From positions 243,595-307,594 of IMG/VR virus record IMGVR_UViG_3300033405_000002: 64,000 nt of DNA. One strand, 5' to 3'. A program made the translations under genes and the position numbers. Positions 13,172 to 64,000 of this stretch are shown piece after piece (within the stretch, counting starts at the first letter, position 1; each line of letters starts with the position of its first letter). The notes below the pieces were generated by a model that searched no databases, was not told where the DNA came from, and saw only the letters and a list, made by a program, of their open reading frames with translations. Source of the DNA: a virus (taxonomy: Duplodnaviria > Heunggongvirae > Uroviricota > Caudoviricetes).

Positions 13172-16100
13172 ATGAAGTACGCCGCAAAAATCCTCGGCGC
13201 TGCAATGGCAGAGCCGAAGAAGGCGGACTTGAGCAAGCTTTCCAAACTAGAGCCGGGTCAGATCGTCAGGACTATCGACGGGTCTGCCTTCCGTGTTCGG
13301 TCCAAGATCGACGGGCCAGACGGATTCGTCTTCAAGCTGGCAACCCTTGCAGGAAAGCCTGTCCAGACACCCGCCGACTTTCGTCCGGTAGGTCTCGCTA
13401 TGGCGCGGTTCGCGTCATGGCTGAAGTGGAAGCTCGCCTACAACCACAACTTCGACATGTACGTGAACTCGTACATCGAGCAGTTCAATCAGCAACACCC
13501 AGACACCCCACTCCCCGTTCCGGTCATCGGTCGTGACGGGAAGCCCATGCAGTGGGCGAAGTGGTTCCAATCCGCAATCGTCCCGAAGCTTCATGTCCCA
13601 CAAAAGGGTGAAACGGGAGATGAACTGAAAGACGAAGCAATCCACGAGATGCTTTTCACGTCTTTTGGTCAGCGGCACATCCTTGAGCAGTTCGCCAAGA
13701 AAATCAAAAACCTTGGTGACGAAGCCCACAAGCAGGACTTGTCCCCGCAGCTTCGTGCTTTTCTTATCAGCACCTTCCTGTACCGCGTGAGCGAGATGCG
13801 CGAGAAACTCCAGCGTATGCACCCTGTAACCGGGGACGAAGAATACGACCTTGAGTACCTGCACAAAAAGCTGAGAAACACACGTGACCCCGGCCTCAAA
13901 GAAGAGTTGGAGCGCGAGATCGAACGATTGACTGGCTACGCTGGTGGTTCCCGCGAAGTACCAATGGTTCAGCCGTCTGAAGAAGATGAAGGCGCGGAAG
14001 TTAATATCCTCGAAACGCCGGAGCACGGTGTCGGCGAAGCAGATTTTGAGAGCATAGAAGCTCAACGCGACATCGCCAAATTCCGCGAAGGCTTCTACAA
14101 GTGGCTGAAGGGCACACAAGGTAAAGCGGCGAACGGCTACGCTTTCATGTTCGACCTGATCTGGGTCTTAGTATCTAAAGGGGACGAAGACTTTAAGCGT
14201 GGCGATCTGGAAGAAGTTTGGAAGCAGAAGACAGGGCTGAGCACGGGTTCATTCAAGGAATATTACACGAACCTTCCCGCCATGCTTGAAAAATATGTCG
14301 CCCTACATAATGACGAGCTTGAAGGTAACATAATTCTCGATCTCATGGATGTCATTCGCCAAGAGCGCGAAAGACGGACTAAGGCAGAGCGCCGTAAGCA
14401 GAAAGCCCAGCCAGCGACAGCATCTCTCAATCTCGCGGCATCTGACGAAGAATTGCCGTGGCTTGAAGAGATGGCAGTTGACAAAAAGGGCGCACAGAAA
14501 ACGGCCGATGAATACGAAGATCATGTGAAGCGTGTTGATCCGAATTATCAGGAAGAAAAAGATTCCTACGACTTCCCCAAGAATTGGAAGGAAGAAGAGA
14601 CGGAGGAAACTCACGATAAGAAAAAGAAGAAGACCGCAAAGCTGGTCGCTGGGACAGAGCTTACGCCGGAGATGCGCAAGCAAGTTCAAGACGCTTTCAT
14701 TTATCGCTGGACTTTAGACAATCCGCGCCGCGCTGACGTATACCACTGCGATAAGTGCGACGTCGCCAATCAGCCCTACGTCAACGAGCAGTCCGCCGAA
14801 GGTCACCAGCATCCGACCATTCCAATGATCTCTGACGATCAATGGATTCAAGAACACTCATTTTACTTCACGAACGATGGTCGCTTGCAAGCCCGCCGTC
14901 ACGCTCAGCCCGCGTATCTAGCACAGCACAACGCGAGCCGTGTTGCATCTGTTGCGCAGAAGTTTGCGGTGGAGAAGGCAGCGTGGAATCCCGGCGAAGG
15001 TCAGTGCCGTGAGTGCGGCGCTCCATTAAACAACGCTGAAGGTACGCTCTGTGGTCAGTGCTTGGCGGAGGGCGCTGAAGATCGCTTAGACCCTTTCGAC
15101 AAGTTTTCAGCCTGTCATCACATCAAGACCATCTGCCGTAAGTGCGGTAACGTTCAAACCTGCCGTTGCTCGACCCCCAAAGTTTCCTCGTTCGTAGACT
15201 CATGCTCGAACTGCAAAGAAGCTATGCTTGGTCATGACTTTGACAACGCCGATGGTCAAGCAATCCGTGACGAAACTTATCCCGATACAGGCTTCACGAT
15301 GAACGAAGCCGATACTACGGAGTTCAAAGAGCCGCGTGTCGCTGGTATCAGTGATCGCTATATGACACCGCAGCAAATGGTGCAAGAGTTCAACCGACCG
15401 GGCGGTCAGGGCGATCAACTACGCTCCGAAGAACATTTTGAAAAAGAAGAAGTACCGATTACCACCAAAATGCGTCGCGGCTTAGGTGATCCGGCTATTC
15501 CCCGCAAGGAAGGCGCTGGCTCCAACAGCGGAGATGACGACGTGCGTGGCGTAGGCGACTTGTGGCACGAGCTTTTCTACGGAGATCGCTTACAGCAAAT
15601 TTCAGGTAAAGCAATGGTAGACGGCATGGAGAAAGAGAGTGCTGTCGCCGCGCCGGAGAACTGGCAATGTCAGAACTGCGGTCATGAAGGTATGATGACC
15701 ACCAGCGGGAAATGTGAAGCGTGTGGTTCAGAAGCCTTGGTGAGCACGCTCCCGGCGAAGCCGGAGCACGCACGTCCCGGTATCGGCGAGCATAGCACAG
15801 GACGTTTCCCGGCTGAGAAGACAGGACAAGGCAGTGGAAATACAACGGTCACCATGCAGGAGCAGAATGTGACCACGCCATCAACCCAGAATAAAGGCGA
15901 ACCGATGGCGGTGCCGGATGCGATTGACCAGAACCCCGGCCCACACAGCCCGAATGCACCGTATCTCGCGCCACGCACGCCGAACATCCAGCCGCGCATC
16001 GTGAATGTTCCGAGCGGAACCCAAGCTGAGTCTTTGGCATCTTCAACCGCCAGTAAGCAGGGTTCTGAGGACGCTGACTGGAACGATGACATCCGTCCAG

Positions 16101-16975
16101 AAGATATTGACACTCATCCCGGCGAAGAAGCTGAGGATGAAGAACAGTGTCCACAGTGCGAAGGCTACAACACAGAAGTTGCACAGACAGAAGAAGGCAA
16201 CGAGCTTTACTGCCATGACTGCGCAGCGGTTACTGACATGTGGTTCCCCGGCACCCGCCCTGACTTAGAGTCTGAAAAAGTTCAAGAACCGTTCCACTGG
16301 CACGGCCCCGAGCCGACCAAAGTAAAAGAGCAGACCATTCCGGGTGAAGAACACTCAACCACGGATGACATGGATTTTCATCGCTTTATGAAAAGCATTG
16401 GAGCTTCCAAGCGTAAGATTGCTGTGCATTACACGCCCGAAGGTGAAGAACTTCCCGCTGATTACAACCCGGCAGACTATGACATCGACCCCTTCTCGGT
16501 TTCGAGCATGAGCGATCAGGAAAAGGAAAACTACCTGCTTAGCCACGGCTGGCTTAAAGAGAACGAGCACCACGGCGCAACGTGGTGGATGGGGCAGCAG
16601 ATGTGGTGGAAGGAAGGTTACGAGGAAGAAATCCCGTACCAGAGCACCGATGACGCTATGGAAAAGGAACTTGACCTTCAGGAAGCCGCAGCCGAGCGTT
16701 TGATGAAGCAGGGTGCCGCACCAGTCACCGTCAACCCAAACGTCGCCCAGCAGGAAGCCTTGCACGCGCAACAGACCAATCAAGGCGTTGCCGGACCTCC
16801 AGCCGCCGTTGCGATCATGCCGGGACAGGGACAGCAGCAAGGGCCGGAAGAGACCACCATTGGCAGGCACACGGTTGAGCCGGAGCTTCCGAACGCAAAC
16901 TATCACATGCAGAGCAGCCTAGCGGCTGCCGAAGAAGAACGCTTGCTTAAAGAAGCGGGTCTCGAAGAAAGCTAA
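13172..16975 (+). CDS. Large mosaic polyprotein (sigma-like domain, several Zn ribbons, KxA motifs)
   Basis: 1267 aa; multiple CxxC...CxxC pairs; domains separated by KTA/KEA/RVA/KIA-type motifs. Confidence 0.75.
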   Translation: MKYAAKILGAAMAEPKKADLSKLSKLEPGQIVRTIDGSAFRVRSKIDGPDGFVFKLATLAGKPVQTPADFRPVGLAMARFASWLKWKLAYNHNFDMYVNSYIEQFNQQHPDTPLPVPVIGRDGKPMQWAKWFQSAIVPKLHVPQKGETGDELKDEAIHEMLFTSFGQRHILEQFAKKIKNLGDEAHKQDLSPQLRAFLISTFLYRVSEMREKLQRMHPVTGDEEYDLEYLHKKLRNTRDPGLKEELEREIERLTGYAGGSREVPMVQPSEEDEGAEVNILETPEHGVGEADFESIEAQRDIAKFREGFYKWLKGTQGKAANGYAFMFDLIWVLVSKGDEDFKRGDLEEVWKQKTGLSTGSFKEYYTNLPAMLEKYVALHNDELEGNIILDLMDVIRQERERRTKAERRKQKAQPATASLNLAASDEELPWLEEMAVDKKGAQKTADEYEDHVKRVDPNYQEEKDSYDFPKNWKEEETEETHDKKKKKTAKLVAGTELTPEMRKQVQDAFIYRWTLDNPRRADVYHCDKCDVANQPYVNEQSAEGHQHPTIPMISDDQWIQEHSFYFTNDGRLQARRHAQPAYLAQHNASRVASVAQKFAVEKAAWNPGEGQCRECGAPLNNAEGTLCGQCLAEGAEDRLDPFDKFSACHHIKTICRKCGNVQTCRCSTPKVSSFVDSCSNCKEAMLGHDFDNADGQAIRDETYPDTGFTMNEADTTEFKEPRVAGISDRYMTPQQMVQEFNRPGGQGDQLRSEEHFEKEEVPITTKMRRGLGDPAIPRKEGAGSNSGDDDVRGVGDLWHELFYGDRLQQISGKAMVDGMEKESAVAAPENWQCQNCGHEGMMTTSGKCEACGSEALVSTLPAKPEHARPGIGEHSTGRFPAEKTGQGSGNTTVTMQEQNVTTPSTQNKGEPMAVPDAIDQNPGPHSPNAPYLAPRTPNIQPRIVNVPSGTQAESLASSTASKQGSEDADWNDDIRPEDIDTHPGEEAEDEEQCPQCEGYNTEVAQTEEGNELYCHDCAAVTDMWFPGTRPDLESEKVQEPFHWHGPEPTKVKEQTIPGEEHSTTDDMDFHRFMKSIGASKRKIAVHYTPEGEELPADYNPADYDIDPFSVSSMSDQEKENYLLSHGWLKENEHHGATWWMGQQMWWKEGYEEEIPYQSTDDAMEKELDLQEAAAERLMKQGAAPVTVNPNVAQQEALHAQQTNQGVAGPPAAVAIMPGQGQQQGPEETTIGRHTVEPELPNANYHMQSSLAAAEEERLLKEAGLEES

Positions 16976-17006: not shown

Positions 17007-17990
17007 ATGGCAAATCCAGCAGAAATTCGTAAGAAGATTGAGGCCCGCAAGGTCGCAAAGCAGGCAGCACAGAAGGCAAAGTTCGCCAAGATGCGTCACG
17101 TCGCGGAGAACGAGCCGATGGGAGTCGAGAAAGACCTGACCCAGCTTGCCGATGCGTGCGCAGCGCAGGCGGAAGCGTTTGAAAACCTGAAAGAGAACCT
17201 TGACCTGATCCTAGCCCCCAAAGAAGCGTCGTTGAAGATTCGTGTTGCAGCCGCACGCAATTACGCTAAGTCCTTTAAGCGCATCGCGGAAGAGGCCCCC
17301 GAACAACTGGCGGAAGCTCTCTCCGAAGCCTACCACAGCCTTGATGAACAGGCTGGCGCTCTTGAGCAACTGGCTGGCACCCTAGGCATTGACCTTGGCG
17401 CGACTCCAACCGAAGAAGCATTCGCACAAGAAGGCATCCAAGAACTGAACGAAGCCGATGAAGAAGGCGTCCCCGTTGGCGACGTACCGGAGCCGGGAAT
17501 GGAAGACGGCGAAGAGAAGGAAGCAGCCGGAGACGGCAGCGCCGGATTCGTGACCGACCGTGGTGCAGACGGCAACCCGAAGAAGCCAGAAGAAGTCAAT
17601 GTTCCCCGCGTGGCAGCGGGCGGCGGTGAGGCTGGATTCGTGACCGACCGTGACAACAAAGGCAAGCCGGAGCGTCCGGCGAAGGTTGAAATCCCACAAG
17701 CGCAAGGCAAGTCTGAAGCGCTTGGAAACAAAGGTGGTTCAACGAAAGGCGAGCCAGCAGCCAAGTTTGTGAAAGACATTCCTCAAGCACAAGGCAAGGC
17801 GGAAGTTGGCGCAGGGAAATCTTCTGCGCAGAATAAGCCAATGAAACAGATCGTGCCGTCTGGCACACCGACTGGCTTACCCGCCGAATCCTTCGTGAAG
17901 GACATTCCGCAGTCGCAGGGTAGTTCTGAGCTTAACAAGTCAGCAAGGACAGCCCCCGCCCGCAGAACAGCCGCTCGCGGGAGCCTTTGA
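17007..17990 (+). CDS. Repetitive scaffold-like head protein
   Basis: 327 aa; helical N-terminus, repeats GFVTDR x2 and [FV]-x-[KE]-[DE]IPQ[AS]QG x3, several KxA motifs. Confidence 0.55.
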   Translation: MANPAEIRKKIEARKVAKQAAQKAKFAKMRHVAENEPMGVEKDLTQLADACAAQAEAFENLKENLDLILAPKEASLKIRVAAARNYAKSFKRIAEEAPEQLAEALSEAYHSLDEQAGALEQLAGTLGIDLGATPTEEAFAQEGIQELNEADEEGVPVGDVPEPGMEDGEEKEAAGDGSAGFVTDRGADGNPKKPEEVNVPRVAAGGGEAGFVTDRDNKGKPERPAKVEIPQAQGKSEALGNKGGSTKGEPAAKFVKDIPQAQGKAEVGAGKSSAQNKPMKQIVPSGTPTGLPAESFVKDIPQSQGSSELNKSARTAPARRTAARGSL

Positions 17991-24076: not shown

Positions 24077-24814
24077 TCAACGGTTTGCCCTGCTGACGAA
24101 CATGTGTTCGAACTCCGGGTCTTCCACTTTGATGCGGAACTCACCGAGCAAAGCCGGATCAACGCGGTAGATGTGCCCCAGCTTTTGCATCTTGCGCTTG
24201 CTGTATCCCACACCCGACGGATTTGCCTTGTCGATCAGACTGTGAATGTACGCGCCAAGGGCGTGTTCTTGCGCGTCCTTCGATTCCATAAGCTGCTTGG
24301 AGGCACGGCTCATGGCGCGGCGAATATCCGGTCGGTGTAGGTGATGCACTTCGGCGATCCGTTGGAACGACCGTGTCTTGGCATACAGGTCTATGATCTC
24401 CGAAAGATTGATCTTGTCCAAACTGCCTTCCAACCCAGCACGTGTCAAAATCTCGTGCATACGCTCCACGGTCGGCTCCCCCATCATAATGAAGCACGCC
24501 AGAGTCTTGACCGCCATACGGATGCGGAATGAGCACACCGTCTGCGTGGACTTGTGGATGATGGCAAGTGTGTTCTGTGTCTTGCTAAGCAGATAGTACG
24601 AGAGCAGGAGTTCTTGGTCTTCCTTTTTCAAATGCCGCAGCATCCGCAGAAATTCCGAGAAGTGATCGAGCACGTAGGTTAGGATGTCGTCTTCTGAAAG
24701 CTCCGGCTGCGTCTCCAAGCCGATGCACGACATTCCGTGAAGCTGTTCTTCTTCGGTCAGCAGCATTGCTCTGGCCGATGTGATGCTGTCAAAGTACGGT
24801 GTATTCTCGCTCAA
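24077..24814 (-). CDS. Transcription factor with tandem sigma70 region-4-like HTH domains
   Basis: LKKEDQELLLSYYLLSKTQNTLAIIHKSTQTVCSFRIRMAVKTL and second HTH RSFQRIAEVHHLHRPDIRRAMSRA; start uncertain (TTG 24814 or ATG 24922). Confidence 0.6.
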   Translation of the reverse strand: MSENTPYFDSITSARAMLLTEEEQLHGMSCIGLETQPELSEDDILTYVLDHFSEFLRMLRHLKKEDQELLLSYYLLSKTQNTLAIIHKSTQTVCSFRIRMAVKTLACFIMMGEPTVERMHEILTRAGLEGSLDKINLSEIIDLYAKTRSFQRIAEVHHLHRPDIRRAMSRASKQLMESKDAQEHALGAYIHSLIDKANPSGVGYSKRKMQKLGHIYRVDPALLGEFRIKVEDPEFEHMFVSRANR

Positions 24815-24951
24815 TGTCCTTTTCCTCAATAAAGCTGATATTTTTCCCTTGACCCAATGAAAAATTTTGGATAAGGTGCATAATAGGACAAGTGTCGCCC
24901 CGATGGGCCTTAGCGTCCGCACGCACCCTAATACTGAAATTTTTGGAAAAC

Positions 24952-30965: not shown

Positions 30966-33900
30966 ATGGAGAAACCAATGGACAAGGTGCTCAAAACAGC
31001 CGGAGTTAGTGGCAACAGCGTAGCTGGCAAAAGCTATCAGATGTTTACCGTCAGCGAAGAGTTGCTGGCTAAGGTGGTCGAAGCGGTGCAGGCGGGCGAG
31101 AAGGAAGCTCGTAGCTCCGGTATCGTCCAGTCGTTCGAAGTCTTCTATCACGGCTTCCGTCAGAACATCGCAATCGGACGCATTTATATCGTCCCCGCAT
31201 CGGTCTGCTCTGACCGTAAGAATTTCCCTGTGGCTCTGCTCTACGGCGCGATTGTGCGCGTGTTCGGCACGGGCGGCGAGGAACTTGCCGACCTGATCGA
31301 AAAGAAGATCGGTGACAGCGAGTTCGACGAATACTCTCAAGCTGACTTTGATTCAATCAAGAAAGACTTGTTCGTGGATGAGACAACGGGCAAGGAAGCC
31401 AGCCTTATCGTTTACGCACCCATGTGGGAGAACAAGCGCGAGTTCATCGCGTTTCACTTCACCAAGGACAGCGAGAAGCTGAAGCACAACCTGCGTCACC
31501 AAGTCTTCTCCGCTTACTACGATCCGCGTGTATCCAGCGCGTTTGACGCGATGATGACGAACGTGAACACCACCAAGGTTGATGTCACTGACATCACCCC
31601 GAAGATTCCGTTCCCGTTCCTTTCTGAAAATTTGCTGAAAGAATACCCGAAGCTTATCAAGCAGGCGGGTGACAAGCGTCCGAAAGTTCTGCTCAACCAC
31701 AAGACCGCTGATGCGGTCACTAAGGAAGTTCTTGAGCCAGCCGAGATGGACGTGTTCGACTCACTCAATCAAGCTCTTGAGAACAGCTTGACCCCAAGCG
31801 TTGACAGTGCCGAAGAAGCAGGCTACAAGACCCCATCCACCAAGGATGACGTGCCTCGCGTAGCATCCATGACGAAGGTTTCCTACGTAGCGCACTGCCC
31901 CGGACACAAGAACTCCAAGGGCGAGTCCGCTGAATGGTGTGTGAAGTCTCACAAGGACGACCACATTATCTCCAGCCACAAGACTGAAGCAGAAGCTAAG
32001 CAGCATCTTCAGGACATGCACGCACACAGTGGCAGCAAGCAAGCCGCCGATGGCACGGTTGAGGAGAATCCGCAAGCGGCGCACGAAACCCCGGTTACGA
32101 ACGTTGGGCCGGGAACTGAAGCCGAGAAGTTGCAGAAGAACACCGTCCAAGGTATCAAGGACGGCCCGAAGGATGTTGGGCGCAGCGGTCAGCCGCCAAT
32201 TGGGATTCCGATTGACGAAACGGGTGTGCCTCGCCGCGAAGGTGAGAAGCAGCCCAAGGCGGCAAAGAGAACCAAGGGCATGATCCCGACGATGGACATT
32301 CGTCCTGAGATCGGCAAGAAGAACGACATGTCCAAGCTGGAGATGGACAGATTCAGGAACGGCGGATACGTGGAGCGTGAGCACCCGGAAGGCATTCGTC
32401 AGTTCTGCGCTGATTTAGGTAGCGACAAGCAAGCAGGCGACGCGCTTCGTGACCACGCCAAGCAGCTTCAAGCTGGCGGGTACGGTGACCAGCCGCTTGA
32501 GAAGTCGGCGACCGATAAGTGGGGAAATGCTAAGGTCTCGATCAACTTCCCGAAGAAGGCAGCCGACGACTTCACACGCGCCTACATCGAAGCCGCTCTT
32601 TGGTCTTCGACGGACAACTCTACGCCTAGCGGCGGCGAGTCTCTGGATAAGAACTACGGCCCGGAAGACATCGCGCCTGAGTCTCTGCGTGAGATCGGGC
32701 AAGTTTGTCAAGAGTTCCAGCGCGAGAACGCTGAGCTTCTTCAAGAAGCATATCAGCGTCCCGGCTATGGACGTAAGGGACAGTGGAGTTCCGAAGCTCA
32801 GGCAGGACATGACTTCTGGTTGAGCCGCAACGGTCACGGGACAGGTTTCTGGGATCGTCAAGCACTTGAAGAAGGTGGGCTTGGAGACAAGTTGCACGCA
32901 GCCGCGAAAGCTTACGGTGAGTCTGATCCGTACATTGGCGACAATGGAGAAATCTACTTCTACGAAGAGAGCGGCAAAGGCAAGCCGCCCGCAGAAGTTC
33001 AGGCGAGCTACGTAGCGAGCAAGATGGGCAAAATCGTGGACTCCGATTGGGGACATGAAGTTGCATCCGACGCGGCGAAGAAAGCACGTGCCAAGAAAGA
33101 ATCCAACCTTGATAAGTTCCGCAGCAAGGAAGCAGTGTCTCTGGACATTGACTCTATCTGGGACGAAATCACGGAAGACATGGGGCCAGCCCCGATCATC
33201 GAACTCGAACACAACCCGGACAACCCCGCACCTTCGAACACTGAAGAAGCTGGGCCGAGTTTTGGAACTGAAGGCGAGTCCGAGAGTGAAGCGCCGAGCG
33301 AAGAAAAGAAGCCATCCGTTGCGCCGCGTAAGCGTGACGTTGGCGATCTGCCGGAAGCGATGCGCAGTGACGAGCCAGAAGATGACAAGTCAATGACCGA
33401 CTCTGAAGCTGACGCACAGGAAGACAGCACGCCAGAAGATGAACCAAAATGGCACACGTCCGCTCATTTCGCGGATTTCGTGGACGAAGTTTACGAAGAC
33501 ACGAACAATGAAGACGAAGTTCCTGAAGGTTATCAGCGCGTGAATTGTGACCAGTGCGAGATGCTTTCGATCAACGGAATCCCCTGCCATGAGCAAGGGT
33601 GCCCGAACAGCAACTCCCGCTGGGATGCCGATTCACAGAGTTGGATCAAGCAGCGCGAATGCCGCGAATGCGGCGGGACCGTGGACGCAGATGATCCTTG
33701 CTGTAACGCACCGTTTGAAGAAGACGACGAGATCGTGACATTCGGTGACCAAGAGGAAGATGAGCACGAAGCATCGGCAAAGACAGCAAGCGGTCATCCG
33801 TATGACGTGTTTGTCAACGGTGTTTGGGCGAATCGTGTGTTCTACGATGAGCCAGACGCCGCAGATGATGTGAAGCGCAGCTTGATTAACCATGACGGTT

Positions 33901-35447
33901 ACTATCCGGGCATCGAAGTTGAGCCGGGTGGGGTGAACATCCCGCACGGTCAATGCTGGACGGAAGAAGAACTCCAGATGGGTCACCGCGACCGTCGCCG
34001 TCGCCGTGGTTCGAATAAGAACGCGGACACCGCTGACAACCCAGCCAACGAAAAGGGCGGGGAAGGCGCAATGGACCCGAAGACCAACAAGGACAAGGCT
34101 AAGACCGCTGATACAGCCGACAACGAGTATGACATCGACGCAGCGCCGAAGCCGAAGGACAAAGAGCTTGGTCAGTCTCCAACGGTAGAGTGCCACAAAA
34201 AGACCGATGAAAAAGGTCAAGTGTACGCAAGCAAGAAGAAGGCGGACACAGCCGACAACCCAGCAAACATGGCTGGCGGCGATGGCGCTATTGCAGTGAA
34301 GGATCGTGCAGTGGTTAAAGACACAAGCGGCCCGACGCCGGACAACACCAAGGCAGCTTCCAAGAAGAAGGCGGAAGCGGTCTCCGGCGACATCGCAGAA
34401 GCCAAGTCTGAAGTTGACTATTGCAAGTCCGAAGTTGCGGATGAGCCAAGAGCCACGGACACCGTGAACCCGGAGCACTTTGCTGGGTATGACGATGATT
34501 TGGTTTGCGAGATTTGTCCAAGCCCTGTTGGTGAAGACGTTGGCAAGCCCGGAATTACATGCAAGGGTTGCGGCATGACTCTGTGCAGCAAGGCGTGCCT
34601 TGACTCGCACTACAAGTCTTCACCGGAATGCGAACTTGAAGCCAAGAAGGTGAGCGCGGATGTTTCAGGCGACATGTCTGAAGCGAAGTCCGAACTCAAC
34701 TACAACAAGGCAGATATGGCAAACGAGCCACAAGCTACGCAAGTGACGGCTCCAGTTGACATGGAACAGAAAACGGCGGAAGACATCTCCGGCGATATGT
34801 CCGAAGCGTCATCCGAAGTTGACTACAACAAGTCGCAGATTGCAGACGAACCAGCGGCGGAAGACACGGTTAACCCAGAACATTTCGCTGGCAGCAAGAA
34901 AGCTGACAAGGGCGTATGCAGTGAGTGCGGGAGACAGCGCACGCTTGGCCCGAACGGTATGTGCCATGAGTGCGAACAGAATGAGCGCGACAACCAAGGC
35001 GTGAAATCTTCTTCCAAGAAGAAGGCGCTAGGGCCGTGCATGTGCGGCGACACCAATTGCCCGTCCTGTGGAAGCGCGATGGGAACTTGGCCGCCAGCGG
35101 TATGTCCTCTCGATGGCAAACCCGCTGAAGATTGCACTGAGCACTTCGACGAGAACGGTGAAGTCCTTCCGCAGTTCGCGGAAGCGATGAAAGCCGCCGA
35201 AGAAGAATACATCGAGGCACAACGCAAGGCAGATCAGGGCTTGGCAGAATCAATTCAGGAAGACTCCCGCCTAGCGGAAGAATTCTGGAATGAGGAAGCA
35301 AAGGCTCAAGCAGAGCACGAGCACCGTGGTTCCAAAGAAGCAGCCGCAGGCGACGAGTTTCCAGAAGATGTGCAATTTGACTTCGGCGCAGGCGACCTAG
35401 CAGACATCGTGATGACTGAGGACGAAGACGCCGATGACACAAAGTAA
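30966..35447 (+). CDS. Large mosaic polyprotein with many KxA motifs and acidic peptide repeats
   Basis: 1493 aa; about 20 K-x-A motifs; AGHDFWLSRNGHGTGFWDR domain; Zn-binding modules; repeats DTADNPAN and SGDxxEAxSExDY. Confidence 0.8.
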   Translation: MEKPMDKVLKTAGVSGNSVAGKSYQMFTVSEELLAKVVEAVQAGEKEARSSGIVQSFEVFYHGFRQNIAIGRIYIVPASVCSDRKNFPVALLYGAIVRVFGTGGEELADLIEKKIGDSEFDEYSQADFDSIKKDLFVDETTGKEASLIVYAPMWENKREFIAFHFTKDSEKLKHNLRHQVFSAYYDPRVSSAFDAMMTNVNTTKVDVTDITPKIPFPFLSENLLKEYPKLIKQAGDKRPKVLLNHKTADAVTKEVLEPAEMDVFDSLNQALENSLTPSVDSAEEAGYKTPSTKDDVPRVASMTKVSYVAHCPGHKNSKGESAEWCVKSHKDDHIISSHKTEAEAKQHLQDMHAHSGSKQAADGTVEENPQAAHETPVTNVGPGTEAEKLQKNTVQGIKDGPKDVGRSGQPPIGIPIDETGVPRREGEKQPKAAKRTKGMIPTMDIRPEIGKKNDMSKLEMDRFRNGGYVEREHPEGIRQFCADLGSDKQAGDALRDHAKQLQAGGYGDQPLEKSATDKWGNAKVSINFPKKAADDFTRAYIEAALWSSTDNSTPSGGESLDKNYGPEDIAPESLREIGQVCQEFQRENAELLQEAYQRPGYGRKGQWSSEAQAGHDFWLSRNGHGTGFWDRQALEEGGLGDKLHAAAKAYGESDPYIGDNGEIYFYEESGKGKPPAEVQASYVASKMGKIVDSDWGHEVASDAAKKARAKKESNLDKFRSKEAVSLDIDSIWDEITEDMGPAPIIELEHNPDNPAPSNTEEAGPSFGTEGESESEAPSEEKKPSVAPRKRDVGDLPEAMRSDEPEDDKSMTDSEADAQEDSTPEDEPKWHTSAHFADFVDEVYEDTNNEDEVPEGYQRVNCDQCEMLSINGIPCHEQGCPNSNSRWDADSQSWIKQRECRECGGTVDADDPCCNAPFEEDDEIVTFGDQEEDEHEASAKTASGHPYDVFVNGVWANRVFYDEPDAADDVKRSLINHDGYYPGIEVEPGGVNIPHGQCWTEEELQMGHRDRRRRRGSNKNADTADNPANEKGGEGAMDPKTNKDKAKTADTADNEYDIDAAPKPKDKELGQSPTVECHKKTDEKGQVYASKKKADTADNPANMAGGDGAIAVKDRAVVKDTSGPTPDNTKAASKKKAEAVSGDIAEAKSEVDYCKSEVADEPRATDTVNPEHFAGYDDDLVCEICPSPVGEDVGKPGITCKGCGMTLCSKACLDSHYKSSPECELEAKKVSADVSGDMSEAKSELNYNKADMANEPQATQVTAPVDMEQKTAEDISGDMSEASSEVDYNKSQIADEPAAEDTVNPEHFAGSKKADKGVCSECGRQRTLGPNGMCHECEQNERDNQGVKSSSKKKALGPCMCGDTNCPSCGSAMGTWPPAVCPLDGKPAEDCTEHFDENGEVLPQFAEAMKAAEEEYIEAQRKADQGLAESIQEDSRLAEEFWNEEAKAQAEHEHRGSKEAAAGDEFPEDVQFDFGAGDLADIVMTEDEDADDTK

Positions 35448-44431: not shown

Positions 44432-45760
44432 ATGACAGTGGAAACCACAAAGTCGGTGAAAGTCTACGCACTCCAAAGCCCTGAATCCAAAATCCTTTTT
44501 CGTTTGGAAGACAAAGCTGAAGAAGCCGCCCTTATCTCATACGTGTACACGTTGACCGGGCCGCGCAGACCCCAACCGTCAGTTGAGCCAGAGAAAACAG
44601 TTTACAAAAATCTCCGTCCATGGAAGAAAGTTCCAGTGCCGCGCTACGTCGTGGTCGCCGAAAGTCAAGACCTGATCGGTTCCCTCGTGGTCGCGTGGGA
44701 TGGCAAAAAATCCCTTCAAGGCGATGCGCCGTGGGGCCGTCCGGTTATCGGGACTATCGCTGACAAGGCAGAAGACTGCTACACGATTAACGCCAACATC
44801 GAAGGAATCGCCGCCGCAGTACAGCTTGAAGAAGACCGCCGCCAGAAGGAAATCATCAAAGCCCAGAAGGAAGCAGCACAAGCACCCGCCCCGCCGCCAG
44901 AACCAGTGGTTGTGATTGAGCCGCCAGTTCAGGAACCAGAACCAGTAATGGTCAGCGGCACACCCTACAAAGATGAACCGCAGGAGCCGTACACGGGCGA
45001 TCCTTTTACCGTGAGCGCCGATGGTCATTTCGTTGGAGACGACGGGTTCGTTGTGCCGCGCAACTTCGATGAGTTCTATGAGCGGTATCCGAAGTACATC
45101 ATGAATTGGGTCAAGAAAAGACTCAACCGTTTCCAAGTAGATGAAGATGTGGAAGACTGGTCGCAAGACTTGATTATCCACATGAAGTTCTTGCCGCAAG
45201 GCTCGAAGCACCGTCAGCCGGGGGCCAACGGTCGTGAAGTTGGTTGTCAGGATGTGATCGAAACGTTCAACCCGTATCAGCAATACGGCGCTTCGGAACG
45301 CCGCTTCCGCTACTACGTCAATTTCTGTCTCGCCAACAAGTTCAACACCGTGCAATCAAAGCGGCAGAAGAACCCTGTGTGCCGTCCGGGAAACTTGGCG
45401 TTCGGCGCAGCGGCGGACATTGACGAAGTGCATGGTCAGGGAGATGAGTTCATTCATTCAAACTCGTCGCACCTTACTGCGCTGGCGGAACGCAAGGAAA
45501 AGCAGCATGACGACCGCCTGTATACGAACCAGTTCAAACGCTTTGTGAAGAAGGAAGACCCCACGGTCTATCCGGCTATCGAAGCGCTGGAAGCTACAGG
45601 GCCGATGGGGGAAGCCGCCGCGTATATGGGTGTTTCTGAGCAGGAGTTTACACGGCTGCGAGCACGCTTGAAGCAGCTTGGCGAATGCTTTCTCCAGAAG
45701 TCAGTTGTCCCCAAGCAGCGGAAGCCATACAAAAAACGCACGGCCGCGAGTCAATCGTAA
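44432..45760 (+). CDS. ECF-like sigma factor with long N-terminal extension
   Basis: FDEFYERY...EDVEDWSQDLII (region 2), FRYYVNFCLANKF, C-terminal HTH MGEAAAYMGVSEQEFTRLRARL. Confidence 0.65.
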   Translation: MTVETTKSVKVYALQSPESKILFRLEDKAEEAALISYVYTLTGPRRPQPSVEPEKTVYKNLRPWKKVPVPRYVVVAESQDLIGSLVVAWDGKKSLQGDAPWGRPVIGTIADKAEDCYTINANIEGIAAAVQLEEDRRQKEIIKAQKEAAQAPAPPPEPVVVIEPPVQEPEPVMVSGTPYKDEPQEPYTGDPFTVSADGHFVGDDGFVVPRNFDEFYERYPKYIMNWVKKRLNRFQVDEDVEDWSQDLIIHMKFLPQGSKHRQPGANGREVGCQDVIETFNPYQQYGASERRFRYYVNFCLANKFNTVQSKRQKNPVCRPGNLAFGAAADIDEVHGQGDEFIHSNSSHLTALAERKEKQHDDRLYTNQFKRFVKKEDPTVYPAIEALEATGPMGEAAAYMGVSEQEFTRLRARLKQLGECFLQKSVVPKQRKPYKKRTAASQS

Positions 45761-60358: not shown

Positions 60359-63300
60359 TTAAACGTAGCGGTCGTTCTTTGTAACCTGCAATGGGGCGTC
60401 ATAACGCACCGATTCGTAGATGCGCAGGCAGTCTTCCCATGTGCCCTGTGAGTTTTGCCATTCGGCGTAGAGTTCATCTTCCTTGCGCTTGAGCGTGTAC
60501 GTCAAAGGCTCCGCAACGGAGTTCTCGTCAGGTTCCAGATTTGCCTTATTGAAGCGGGATAGCGGTACGCGGATGATCGCTTCTTCTGCTTCGGCCTCGT
60601 AGTCTAGTTCTGCATCCACGGCTTCTTCAGCGTAGGTCGCGGCGATTCTTTCTGTGCCCCAATAGCTCCCGGCTTCCATCACGCCGTCAAGCATGATCTT
60701 TTCAGCGATAGTAGCGGTTGTGCCATGGTACAAGTAAACTTCGGCGGCGGCTTCCTTGTTGAAGTCATCACTCTCGGCTTCTTCTTCATCGTACTCGCGT
60801 CCTTCGGAGTCTTGGATCGCGTGCTTTAACTCATGGTCAATGCTTTTACCGATCCCCATTGGGTAGTCGCGGTGAGCTTCAAGATCAATCAGCACGACCG
60901 GGTATCCGCATGTCCCGTCAATGTACATCGCAACCGCGTTGAGATGAGACAGGTCAACATCCCAGAGTTCAAACGGTTGCTTGGTACGTTGGTAGAGACG
61001 CTGCGCTACGCCAACCGCAAGCTCGGCAAGCTCCGGGTCGCTATTCGCACGCGGCTCATAATCCCAAGAAGGTTGGTAGTCATGGTGTCCGTTGTCTTCC
61101 GGCGCACGCCAGAGTAGTCCCGGTTCATCGGCTGAAGCCGTCTTCTTCCCGATTGCTGCGAGTCCGGCTTCCGTAATTACACGGTCGTCCTTCCAGACTT
61201 CAGGATATTTGTTGGCACGCGCAACCCAACCGCGCTTCTCCATAGCTTCCATCGTCCGCGTCGGGACATACCAGATCGTGTTGCCGTCTTCTCCCTTGGG
61301 GATTCCGAAAGTATCATAACTTGTGACCGGATCAACTGTCCAGAATCCTCCCTTCACACGGTAGAGCGCCTTGCCGTCCGCCATGTGCTGTAAACCGTCA
61401 AGTTGCGTGGGCGTAGGCTTGCTGGCAGCCGTTACCCATCTTTTCTCCGGTTCCGGCTTTTGCCAATCTCCATAGCTCCGTCTGATGCCTGTGATTTCGA
61501 CATCCGTTCCGGGTTTGACGTAGACTTCTTTTTCACCCCAGCAGAATCTCTTGTTCTGCAAGAACGTTTCTTCCCAATCAACCGCGTCTTCACGAATTTG
61601 TGTGCGAAGAAGGGTAAGATTGTTTCGATCTCCGCGCATAGCATCTTCGGCTAAGCCTTCATCCACAGACCAGAACGGTCCAACATTTTCAAAATTGATC
61701 TCTTCAGGCGCGACCCCAAGTCCGCGATACACAGTAAGCGGGAATTTCAACTGCGCCTTGAACTCGTCAAATTTTACTTTATCTTCAGCGAGCGAACCAT
61801 ATTTTTTAACGTCAGCCCACAGGTCTTCGGGATGCGTGGCGGTGTCACGTCTGATTTCTTTGATCTTTGGAACGCTTTGCTCGAAGATACCAATGGCGGT
61901 GTGTCCCACGTTTCCGTGTCCTTCGACCTGTGCGTAGTCGTTGATCTTTACGCCGTCGTAGCCCATCTTAGCAAGCTGTTCAAACTTCCCGTATTCGCGA
62001 TATTGAGGATCGAGCAAATCACCTTCGTTCTGCCCGCCTTCCGTCATATCGAAAACATTCAACGGTTGTTGAACTTCAAACACGCACACGGTGCCTTCTT
62101 CAAACTTGTTTGGCAGCAGTTCTTCATGACCGTTTTCCATGTGCAGCTTCAAACGGTACTGTCCGCGATGGTAGTTGTCTTCAGGACGCTCCGGCTCGTA
62201 GCCGTATTCCGCCAGCTTCTTCTTGACATACTGCATCAAGGCTTCTTCCCGGCCCACCTGCCAATCGTTGGCGGCTTTGTAATAGTCGTCCTGCTTCTCG
62301 AACTTGGTCTTGTCCGGGTACGGATGCGGATACAAAGTCTCAAGCAATTTCGGTGCGCGGTAGGAGTTAGGGCGTCCGGTTGCGTCGTACTTGATGTCAG
62401 TGTACTCGAACCCCAGTTGCTTCTGTAGGTCTGCGACTCCACTGCGGTCATTCGGGCAGGAAGCGATGGACTTTAACGTCGCCATCATCTCCAAACCAGC
62501 AGGGGGAATGTACGTGCGAGCAAATGTTGGACTTTGCGTAGTCCACAGGCAACCGTCCGATGCAGGTTTGTGCGTATGAATTTCATCTTCGCCGATGCCA
62601 CGATACAACAGGGTTCCGGCTGGAATGGTCAACCCAGCACGCGCCGGGGCGGGCGTTGCGGCAAACAAGGATTTCTGTGGCTCTGCGTTCGCCAGTGTCC
62701 ATGCTGGGACTGTGCTTTCATGTCCCGCATCCCATTTGACCACGATCAATGGGCGCATATCCGGGCTTGTGTCGTTTGGGGCTGGTCTAAGTACCTTCTT
62801 GACTTCACCTTTCAATCGTAGATGTTTGTCCAGAAAAGTTGGAAGGTAAAAAACGCGTGTCCCACGTTTGATTTCATCGTAACCCATAGCGGTTACAAGC
62901 TTCGACGCGATCTTGCCGGGGATTTCCTTTTCGCCGGACGCCTCCCGTTTGGACATACCGAACGGCACACTGGCGTAAACATCCAACAGCTTCTCTTCTT
63001 TCGGCTCTTCCTTTTTCTTTTCCTGCTTTGGTTTGCGCGGCAAGTCGGCGGGAATCGGGGACACCGGAGCGACTGGTTCTACGCGAACCGATGCGGTGAA
63101 GCGCGGGTCTCGCGGATTAAAGGACTGTGCCCATACGGATTTGATCTGGTTTGGCTCAAACGCAACCCATGCGGTGCCGCCTTCTACCACATTCTTGTAG
63201 TGAATACCGTCATAACCCGCCGCCTCAAGGCGCTGGCGTGCTTGGCTGGCAAGTTCATACGCAGCGTCGCGGAGTAGGTCGTCGGAGCCTTCACCCCCAC

Positions 63301-64000
63301 GCGCTTCTTCAAACAAGAAGCGGTTCTTTTCGGTGCGGAAGGCTTGGTCATTTTCGTACTTGTTGTACCACTCGTTGATCGCCGCTTCGCCCTCGTTAGT
63401 GTCTGCATACGGTTGAATGCCGTCCGCTTCCATTGCGATTTCGAGTGCGTCCCCACTGACTTTCCCTTGGTTGATGAACTCGCGCAAGTTGTGTTCAGAG
63501 CCGAAGTCCTTTGGGTTAGTGATACGCAAGTATACTTGAATAACGCGGGGCATCTCTTTGTCCCCTTCGTATCGTGTGCTTGTCCAGCCTTTACCTTCGG
63601 CAAACTGATTTGCTACATTAGGCTGCACGGCAAAGTGAGCGCCCATTAGCGAAGTAGGGTCAGCGCCACTACCTGAAGACATCGGCTGCCCTTCGTAATC
63701 ACTGTCATCAACAGGTGGGCCGTCCACGCTGAACGTGTCAAAATTTACGGAAGAGCGCGTGCCATGGTACACCGGGAGCGGGTTGCCGTTTGAATCCACA
63801 ACCTTGCTGCCGTCGAACCATTGGCGGAACTTCGCGTCTTGCGAATTCGGGAACATCTCTTTCTGTTCCGCACCCTTTTTCCGTTTCTCCGGCTCGTCTT
63901 CAATGTCATAACCGCCATCAGACTCGTAGTCATTCTCGACTGGCTGCGGTGTGGGGTTCCCGTTTACACCTTTCCACATGTACTGATCGGACTCATCTCC
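60359..64000 (-). CDS. Polyvalent protein with four ADP-ribosyltransferase-like domains, SH3-like/QxxLF module, wHTH and HExxH peptidase; 5' partial
   Basis: Frame open to the window edge; FRQWFDGSKVVDSNGNPLPVYHGT (ART-PolyVal type), LLYRG, VYRG...FWS...EKE, LYHGT, HELKH. Confidence 0.82.
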   Translation of the reverse strand, partial: GDESDQYMWKGVNGNPTPQPVENDYESDGGYDIEDEPEKRKKGAEQKEMFPNSQDAKFRQWFDGSKVVDSNGNPLPVYHGTRSSVNFDTFSVDGPPVDDSDYEGQPMSSGSGADPTSLMGAHFAVQPNVANQFAEGKGWTSTRYEGDKEMPRVIQVYLRITNPKDFGSEHNLREFINQGKVSGDALEIAMEADGIQPYADTNEGEAAINEWYNKYENDQAFRTEKNRFLFEEARGGEGSDDLLRDAAYELASQARQRLEAAGYDGIHYKNVVEGGTAWVAFEPNQIKSVWAQSFNPRDPRFTASVRVEPVAPVSPIPADLPRKPKQEKKKEEPKEEKLLDVYASVPFGMSKREASGEKEIPGKIASKLVTAMGYDEIKRGTRVFYLPTFLDKHLRLKGEVKKVLRPAPNDTSPDMRPLIVVKWDAGHESTVPAWTLANAEPQKSLFAATPAPARAGLTIPAGTLLYRGIGEDEIHTHKPASDGCLWTTQSPTFARTYIPPAGLEMMATLKSIASCPNDRSGVADLQKQLGFEYTDIKYDATGRPNSYRAPKLLETLYPHPYPDKTKFEKQDDYYKAANDWQVGREEALMQYVKKKLAEYGYEPERPEDNYHRGQYRLKLHMENGHEELLPNKFEEGTVCVFEVQQPLNVFDMTEGGQNEGDLLDPQYREYGKFEQLAKMGYDGVKINDYAQVEGHGNVGHTAIGIFEQSVPKIKEIRRDTATHPEDLWADVKKYGSLAEDKVKFDEFKAQLKFPLTVYRGLGVAPEEINFENVGPFWSVDEGLAEDAMRGDRNNLTLLRTQIREDAVDWEETFLQNKRFCWGEKEVYVKPGTDVEITGIRRSYGDWQKPEPEKRWVTAASKPTPTQLDGLQHMADGKALYRVKGGFWTVDPVTSYDTFGIPKGEDGNTIWYVPTRTMEAMEKRGWVARANKYPEVWKDDRVITEAGLAAIGKKTASADEPGLLWRAPEDNGHHDYQPSWDYEPRANSDPELAELAVGVAQRLYQRTKQPFELWDVDLSHLNAVAMYIDGTCGYPVVLIDLEAHRDYPMGIGKSIDHELKHAIQDSEGREYDEEEAESDDFNKEAAAEVYLYHGTTATIAEKIMLDGVMEAGSYWGTERIAATYAEEAVDAELDYEAEAEEAIIRVPLSRFNKANLEPDENSVAEPLTYTLKRKEDELYAEWQNSQGTWEDCLRIYESVRYDAPLQVTKNDRYV

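Follow-up and report, generated by a model that had tools for sequence, protein, structure and literature searches.

A candidate family of modular, DNA-associated head proteins in jumbo phages of soil

We describe P0001, a protein of 1267 aa encoded in a 64,000-nucleotide stretch of DNA that we analysed as a whole and call the window (positions 243595-307594 of a 332,300-bp IMG/VR virus record, rated complete by CheckV). Among isolates, this 332-kb soil jumbo phage is nearest to Tunturiibacter phage Tunturi_5, a myovirus with a 309-kb genome that infects Acidobacteriota. Judged from sequence comparisons, P0001 belongs to a new family that is confined to one lineage, the soil jumbo phages resembling Tunturi_5, and the family is best read as a set of new modular head proteins that probably associate with DNA. 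For P0001 itself we tentatively favour a role as a modular protein of the head cluster, in which an N-terminal module made of a barrel, a helical domain and a helix-turn-helix (HTH) would tie to the capsid interior and/or DNA and acidic Zn-ribbon modules would form variable cargo. An initial annotation had proposed that part of the N-terminal module is a sigma-like domain that is packaged in the head and injected, and we weigh this and other alternatives below against the predicted fold, the gene neighbourhood and the conservation of the family.

Architecture and conservation of P0001

The open reading frame (ORF) list and its translation place P0001 at 13172..16975 on the + strand, as are all of its parts described here in window coordinates. 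We modelled aa 1-430 with AlphaFold2 from 80 sequences (mean pLDDT 82.9), and the model contains, in order, an SH3/Tudor barrel, a helical domain A, a hairpin, an acidic linker and a helical domain B. The SH3/Tudor-like small beta barrel (aa 28-72; 13253..13387; strands 31-33, 39-48 and 51-57) was the one part recognised by Foldseek, which matched it to Tudor domains (LBR, ERCC6-L2 and the UvrD C-terminal domain; probability 0.6-0.9 over about 50 aa) and, in BFVD, to small uncharacterised phage proteins with a probability of up to 0.99; whether the query was the whole model or domain A, searches of PDB and BFVD returned nothing at E <=0.001. The ORF at 2492-4873 carries six barrels of its own, and we rejected a relationship between these and the barrel of P0001 since the sequences are dissimilar. 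Helical domain A (aa 75-216; 13394..13819) has a fold that we could not assign. It is followed by a helical hairpin insertion (aa 223-256; 13838..13939; model helices 223-236 and 240-256) that few homologues have, solely P0001, P0003, P0004 and P0017 in alignment A1, and then by a conserved acidic linker (aa 257-291; 13940..14044) that is predicted to be disordered (pLDDT 49-65). The linker has the consensus SMxQP...NILETEEHGVGE, and its residues E262, S264, M265, Q267, P268, N278 and L280 are nearly invariant in the alignment. The first four helices of domain B (aa 292-412; 14045..14407), at about aa 292-380, form a predicted sigma4/LuxR-like HTH, with the helix-turn-helix itself modelled at aa 343-378 (nt 14198-14305) and a basic helix following at aa 387-412.

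The module ends at a junction motif (aa 413-424; 14408..14443), which reads QPATASLNLAAS in P0001 and is conserved across homologues: in nearly all of them the conserved module closes with [RK]PA..[AS]SLx[ILV]A and then acidic residues, and the corresponding stretch of gp345 in Tunturi_5 is TTSLHLADVEQ. Processing or docking could take place at this junction. The initial annotation had bounded its segment by KWKLA on the left and SLNLAAS on the right. The right bound (aa 417-423) coincides with the conserved junction and is thus well founded, whereas KWKLA (aa 85-89) sits within predicted helix 75-89, at a place where most homologues have YHLAY; being in mid-helix and unconserved, it is neither a domain edge nor a conserved site. 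All of the strings quoted for the segment do occur in P0001, between aa 85 and 423, with DELKDEAIHEMLF at aa 150-162, ILEQF at aa 170-174 and LRAFLISTFLYRVSEMREK at aa 194-212, the 'region 2' strings of that annotation falling in domain A, and with KFREGFYKWLK at aa 303-313 and GDLEEVWKQKTGLSTGSFKEYY at aa 344-365. From these positions in the translated ORF, nt 13439-14437 correspond to aa 90-422.

Beyond the junction lies a variable, very acidic region (aa 425-1267; 14444..16972) that has nine CxxC motifs and carries a net charge of roughly -70, and we found no Pfam family match for it; Pfam likewise revealed no recognisable enzymatic domain anywhere in P0001. Two conserved modules of this region recur among homologues, the 'FIYRWT' module, which spans aa 485-610 (nt 14624-15001), and a C-terminal one at aa 1187-1265 (nt 16730-16966), and these and the Zn-ribbon units differ in order and position from one homologue to the next. 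The first ~425 residues are common to all relatives in alignments A1 and A2, and past aa ~425 the homologues vary both in content and in length, from about 460 to 1940 aa.

P0001 matches no Pfam or PHROG family. Its own family comprises 91 metagenomic representatives at 50% clustering plus gp345 of Tunturi_5, and 22 of the metagenomic relatives are close, with 30-52% identity over aa 1-440. The source metagenomes of the roughly 90 family clusters are mostly soil, and the sole cultured relative infects Acidobacteriota. The only related protein among isolated phages, gp345, matches the family profile over positions 11-377 (E 2.5e-50) and is 25% identical to P0001 over aa 1-216; a search with the same profile found no homologue in phage G or LR745208.

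Genomic context

The gene for P0001 begins 10 nt past the end of the preceding same-strand ORF and lies 3' of the gene for the major head protein (window 535-1494, +), which shares 72% identity with its Tunturi_5 counterpart and 35% with the one in Bacillus phage G. Between the two, on the same strand, are a Tudor-barrel array, a 1612-aa tail-fibre-like protein and small ORFs. On the 5' side the order is head maturation protease, a 758-aa ORF, a 206-aa ORF and the major head protein; the 311-aa protease (PHROG 18299, E 8e-16) and the 758-aa ORF together occupy G000:C1:240102-243322 (L007:10103-13322), outside the window, and the 758-aa and 206-aa ORFs match no known family. The synteny with the capsid gene is kept in distant relatives. 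Tunturi_5 has the same gene order, with gp345 3' of the capsid gene, and a homologue on an 894-kb contig (P0008) lies 5 kb 3' of the capsid gene, again flanked by the same small ORFs. The contig in question, 894,233 bases from JGI metagenome 3300035696, carries a homologue of a sigma-like gene of the window (P0135) in addition to P0008, with the capsid gene close by. It represents either a phage genome of exceptional size or an assembly that was mis-joined or concatenated. Since the P0001 gene stands within a same-strand run of late structural genes, its product would most likely be synthesised late, incorporated into the head and delivered together with the DNA.

Several observations weigh against the reading of P0001 as a DNA-associated head protein. 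No member of the family has proteomic evidence of presence in virions. Pfam and PHROG searches with P0001, and Pfam searches with 80 homologues, revealed no homology to MuF/gp7 or to any known head protein. The label 'virion structural protein' borne by gp345 comes without proteomic backing in the available part of the Tunturi paper, which names Phold as its sole annotation tool and in which mass spectrometry goes unmentioned. The HTH sequence signature, TGLSxGSFK, is not kept in gp345. Lastly, the junction pattern in the form [ST]Lx[LIVM]A has 19 sites in the 382 ORFs of the genome and does not cluster in head proteins.

Some of these same observations would suit a head protein that serves in structure or assembly alone, as a core, scaffold-like or decoration component, in which the HTH is incidental and the acidic tail fills or organises the capsid interior, with no DNA-binding or host-directed role. 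Such a protein would be expected in the head-gene cluster beside the protease and capsid genes, its long acidic low-complexity tail is such as might occupy a capsid interior, the fold matches do not rise above noise, and the HTH signature is not conserved in Tunturi_5. We nevertheless hold this explanation to be rather unlikely, while taking it seriously: the shuffled, swappable Zn-ribbon modules resemble cargo more than a lattice, and the numerous matches of the sigma4 and LuxR type point specifically to a single four-helix arrangement. It is improbable, in our estimate, that P0001 stays out of the virion altogether, as a late intracellular DNA-binding regulator or an anti-defence protein that is found among structural genes by chance. 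An HTH-like domain and a virion location that is without proteomic evidence would fit this idea, as would the gene that follows gp345 in Tunturi_5 (gp346), annotated as an exonuclease and not as a structural protein; against it stand the capsid-gene synteny kept across distant relatives and a size and acidic disordered tail that would be unusual for a regulator. The gene at 17007-17990, a neighbour of P0001 in the window, was considered as a relative of gp346 and proved unrelated on comparison.

Predicted fold and similarity to sigma factors

A separate structure search, independent of Foldseek and run over 48,161 PDB representatives, returned at least 10 sigma region-4 entries within the top 50 matches to aa 296-380. 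Among them are SigL (6dv9_F, scoring 5.4), CnrH (4cxf_A, 5.1, with 17% identity), region 4 of SigD (3vep_D, 4.9), SigH (3mzy_A, 4.8), SigW (5wuq_A, 4.6) and SigF (8jzt_A, 4.5, with 56/57 residues aligned at 2.0 A), as well as BldN, SigK and region 4 of SigL bound to RslA; the HTH domains of Fur, Zur, SarX and EsrB are interspersed with these. As modelled, domain B therefore has the four-helix HTH of the sigma region-4 fold. This resemblance speaks for the view that aa 90-422 are a highly diverged sigma factor or sigma-like RNA polymerase appropriator, packaged in the head, freed at the SLNLA junction and injected to redirect the host RNA polymerase. The order of helical domain, acidic linker and four-helix HTH also mimics that of ECF sigmas, and two full-length sigma chains, SigB (8x6g_H) and one from M. 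tuberculosis (9m98_F), align to domains A and B in order over 141-167 residues, yet with a root-mean-square deviation of 22-27 A.

Region 2 is the defining part of a sigma factor, and for this reason we modelled domain A by itself (aa 72-220; pLDDT 89.7, pTM 0.80). Its alignments to sigma2 structures span all of region 2 in order but are no better than those to dozens of unrelated helical proteins, and at about 140 aa the domain has more helices in the AlphaFold2 model than sigma region 2 does. Because the sigma2 matches do not rise above those of unrelated proteins, we lean against domain A being a region 2. A structure search of the ESM Atlas gave RapA, Mfd and UvrD-type proteins at TM 0.16-0.24, which is too weak for use and which we attribute to the Tudor barrel. 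The protein-language-model search of the same resource (ESM Atlas features) with aa 75-420 gave no usable match, while the sigma-like gene at 44432 lands on viral sigma clusters in the corresponding search.

In sequence, P0001 resembles sigma motifs no more than chance would allow. Of 80 family members, none matches the sigma Pfam models (Sigma70_r2, PF04542; Sigma70_r4 and r4_2) at E 0.05, and when the genome was searched in six frames at E 10 with Sigma70_r2 and Sigma70_r4_2 (PF08281), the P0001 gene was not picked up; the only Sigma70_r2 match at that threshold is the canonical ECF sigma of the phage, at G000:C1:128321-128515. Against a 38-member ECF alignment built from relatives of this same sigma, hhalign gave domain A a probability of 0.3% (E 0.23) and domain B one of 0.4% (E 0.16), and the comparison of P0001 with the phage's own ECF sigma stayed below 1%. 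The best stretch of domain A does fall on ECF region 2.1-2.2, in keeping with the initial annotation. Searches of PDB sequences by phmmer and by profile with P0001 found no sigma. Co-folding of aa 72-420 with E. coli beta' 200-350 and beta 820-940 scored 0.01 against a mark of 0.32, a result obtained with no controls and with E. coli as a stand-in for the host, and one that speaks neither for nor against binding. The initial annotation singled out an HTH and a junction that are both borne out, and its sigma reading is half supported by the predicted fold. On balance we regard a packaged sigma factor as unlikely, and return to a tether to the capsid interior and/or DNA as the reading that we prefer.

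Transcription genes of the phage

The initial annotation had further argued that motifs in P0001 parallel, in order, those of regions 2 and 4 in the sigma-like gene at 44432..45760 (+). The product of that gene, P0002 (442 aa), has no Pfam match. In the protein-language-model search its neighbours are clusters of viral sigma factors (score 0.92) in which 20-82% of members carry Sigma70_r2, and hhalign aligns it best with ECF sigmas in the region 1.2-2.1 register, at a non-significant E of 0.017. On the strength of these neighbours and this register, P0002 is plausibly a divergent phage sigma factor with a 200-aa N-terminal extension. It has 156 homologues, many of them from contigs of 170-890 kb. 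The parallel with P0001 fared less well: a BLASTP comparison of aa 80-440 gave a best E of 0.42 and family-versus-family hhalign a probability of 0.8%, and we reject paralogy of the two proteins.

The phage also encodes a canonical ECF sigma of 243 aa (G000:C1:127988-128515, -; L003:1087-1818:-), outside the window, which scores above the Pfam cut-offs for both Sigma70_r2 and Sigma70_r4_2. Its nearest relatives are on other large phage-like contigs, and remoter ones include sigmas labelled Acidobacteria and NC10. Elsewhere in the window, a 281-aa ORF (24077-24922, -) weakly resembles Sigma70_r4_2 in two matches (E 0.017 and 0.05); this suggests that it holds two HTH units.

Searches of the whole phage with Pfam models for Rpb1 domain 2, Rpb2 domain 6 and the T7-type enzyme found no RNA polymerase, although the control for the T7-type model gave no information and such models could miss the diverged polymerases of jumbo phages. 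Given this result, the phage probably relies on the host enzyme, which it would use with its own sigma factor or factors. A phage that probably needs the host polymerase leaves room for the packaging of a sigma, but this reliance lends no support to the idea that P0001 is one.

Candidate protease sites

The junction motif does not look like a general protease site, since it is not enriched elsewhere in the genome, and we set that interpretation aside. The tripeptide K-x-A is in mild excess in P0001 (13 observed versus 7.1 expected, z 2.4). The excess is stronger in a 1493-aa protein (window 30966-35447, +), with 25 occurrences against 12 expected (z about 4), and in the 758-aa ORF that follows the protease gene, with 23 against 11.6; the latter ORF possibly encodes a scaffold or core protein on which the head maturation protease acts. 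The capsid protein, for its part, has an N-terminal RQKLAASLGP (within aa 20-35) that is kept in Tunturi_5, and an internal RSLNLAKAE (aa 130-137) that echoes the SLNLA of the P0001 junction, possibly by coincidence.

The boldest interpretation of the N-terminal module would be a virion-delivered factor, either sigma-like and extremely diverged or DNA-binding and directed at RNA polymerase, that the head maturation protease cuts free at SLx[LI]A and that is injected to take over host transcription from the first minute. We consider this very unlikely, slightly more so than the packaged sigma discussed above.

Discussion

Our analysis shows a family of phage proteins with its architecture and predicted fold, a conserved junction and synteny with the capsid gene; a place in the virion, the binding of DNA by the HTH and any cut at the junction are inferred. 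In the model that we favour, the N-terminal module (aa 1-425) would act as a tether to the capsid interior and/or the packaged DNA, and the SLx[LI]A motif with its acidic flank would part this tether from swappable, very acidic Zn-ribbon cargo modules. Should P0001 be packaged and its HTH module target DNA or RNA polymerase, jumbo phages that lack an RNA polymerase would have in it a new way to prepare the next infection, one that would stand beside virion RNA polymerases and injected modifiers of the T4 Alt type. Even on a conservative view, P0001 represents a new family confined to one clade, whose N-terminal module of three domains is well predicted, whose junction is sharply conserved and whose cargo modules are freely shuffled.

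Among the closest known systems are the ECF (group IV) sigmas, such as SigL of M. tuberculosis (6dv9_F), CnrH (4cxf_A) and SigW (5wuq_A). P0001 differs from these in having no sequence or profile similarity to them and a domain A that is not recognisably region 2. Moreover, its module stands at the N-terminal end of 1267 aa, preceded by an SH3 barrel and followed by 840 acidic residues, and the same genome encodes an ordinary ECF sigma.

In its overall plan P0001 calls to mind two other groups of proteins. Minor head proteins of the SPP1 gp7/MuF type have a conserved N-terminal part and polymorphic C-terminal cargo and are encoded among head-module genes. P0001 is like them in architecture alone, with its conserved N-terminus, variable C-terminus and place in the head module; neither it nor its 80 homologues has a Phage_Mu_F or related Pfam/PHROG match, and the role that we propose for it is that of a DNA-associated, ejected protein. 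The polyvalent proteins of phages and conjugative elements, and injected proteins of the P1 DarB type, are very large and modular, with a beads-on-a-string organisation, Zn ribbons and shuffled modules. P0001 shares with polyvalent proteins its great size, modularity, Zn ribbons and module shuffling, and differs in that it has no recognisable enzyme domain and that its conserved part is a barrel, helical and HTH module. Polyvalent-type genes are also found close at hand: a DarB-like gene lies near the Tunturi_5 homologue, and the window itself encodes a 1206-aa protein (60359-63979, -) with an ART-PolyVal ADP-ribosyltransferase domain (E 3.7e-16), which is of the polyvalent type and probably injected.

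The one counterpart from an isolated phage, gp345 of Tunturi_5 (667 aa), is half as long as P0001, has a different tail and lacks the HTH signature. It is nonetheless a true homologue, with the same junction (TSLHLA followed by acidic residues) in the same place 3' of the capsid gene.
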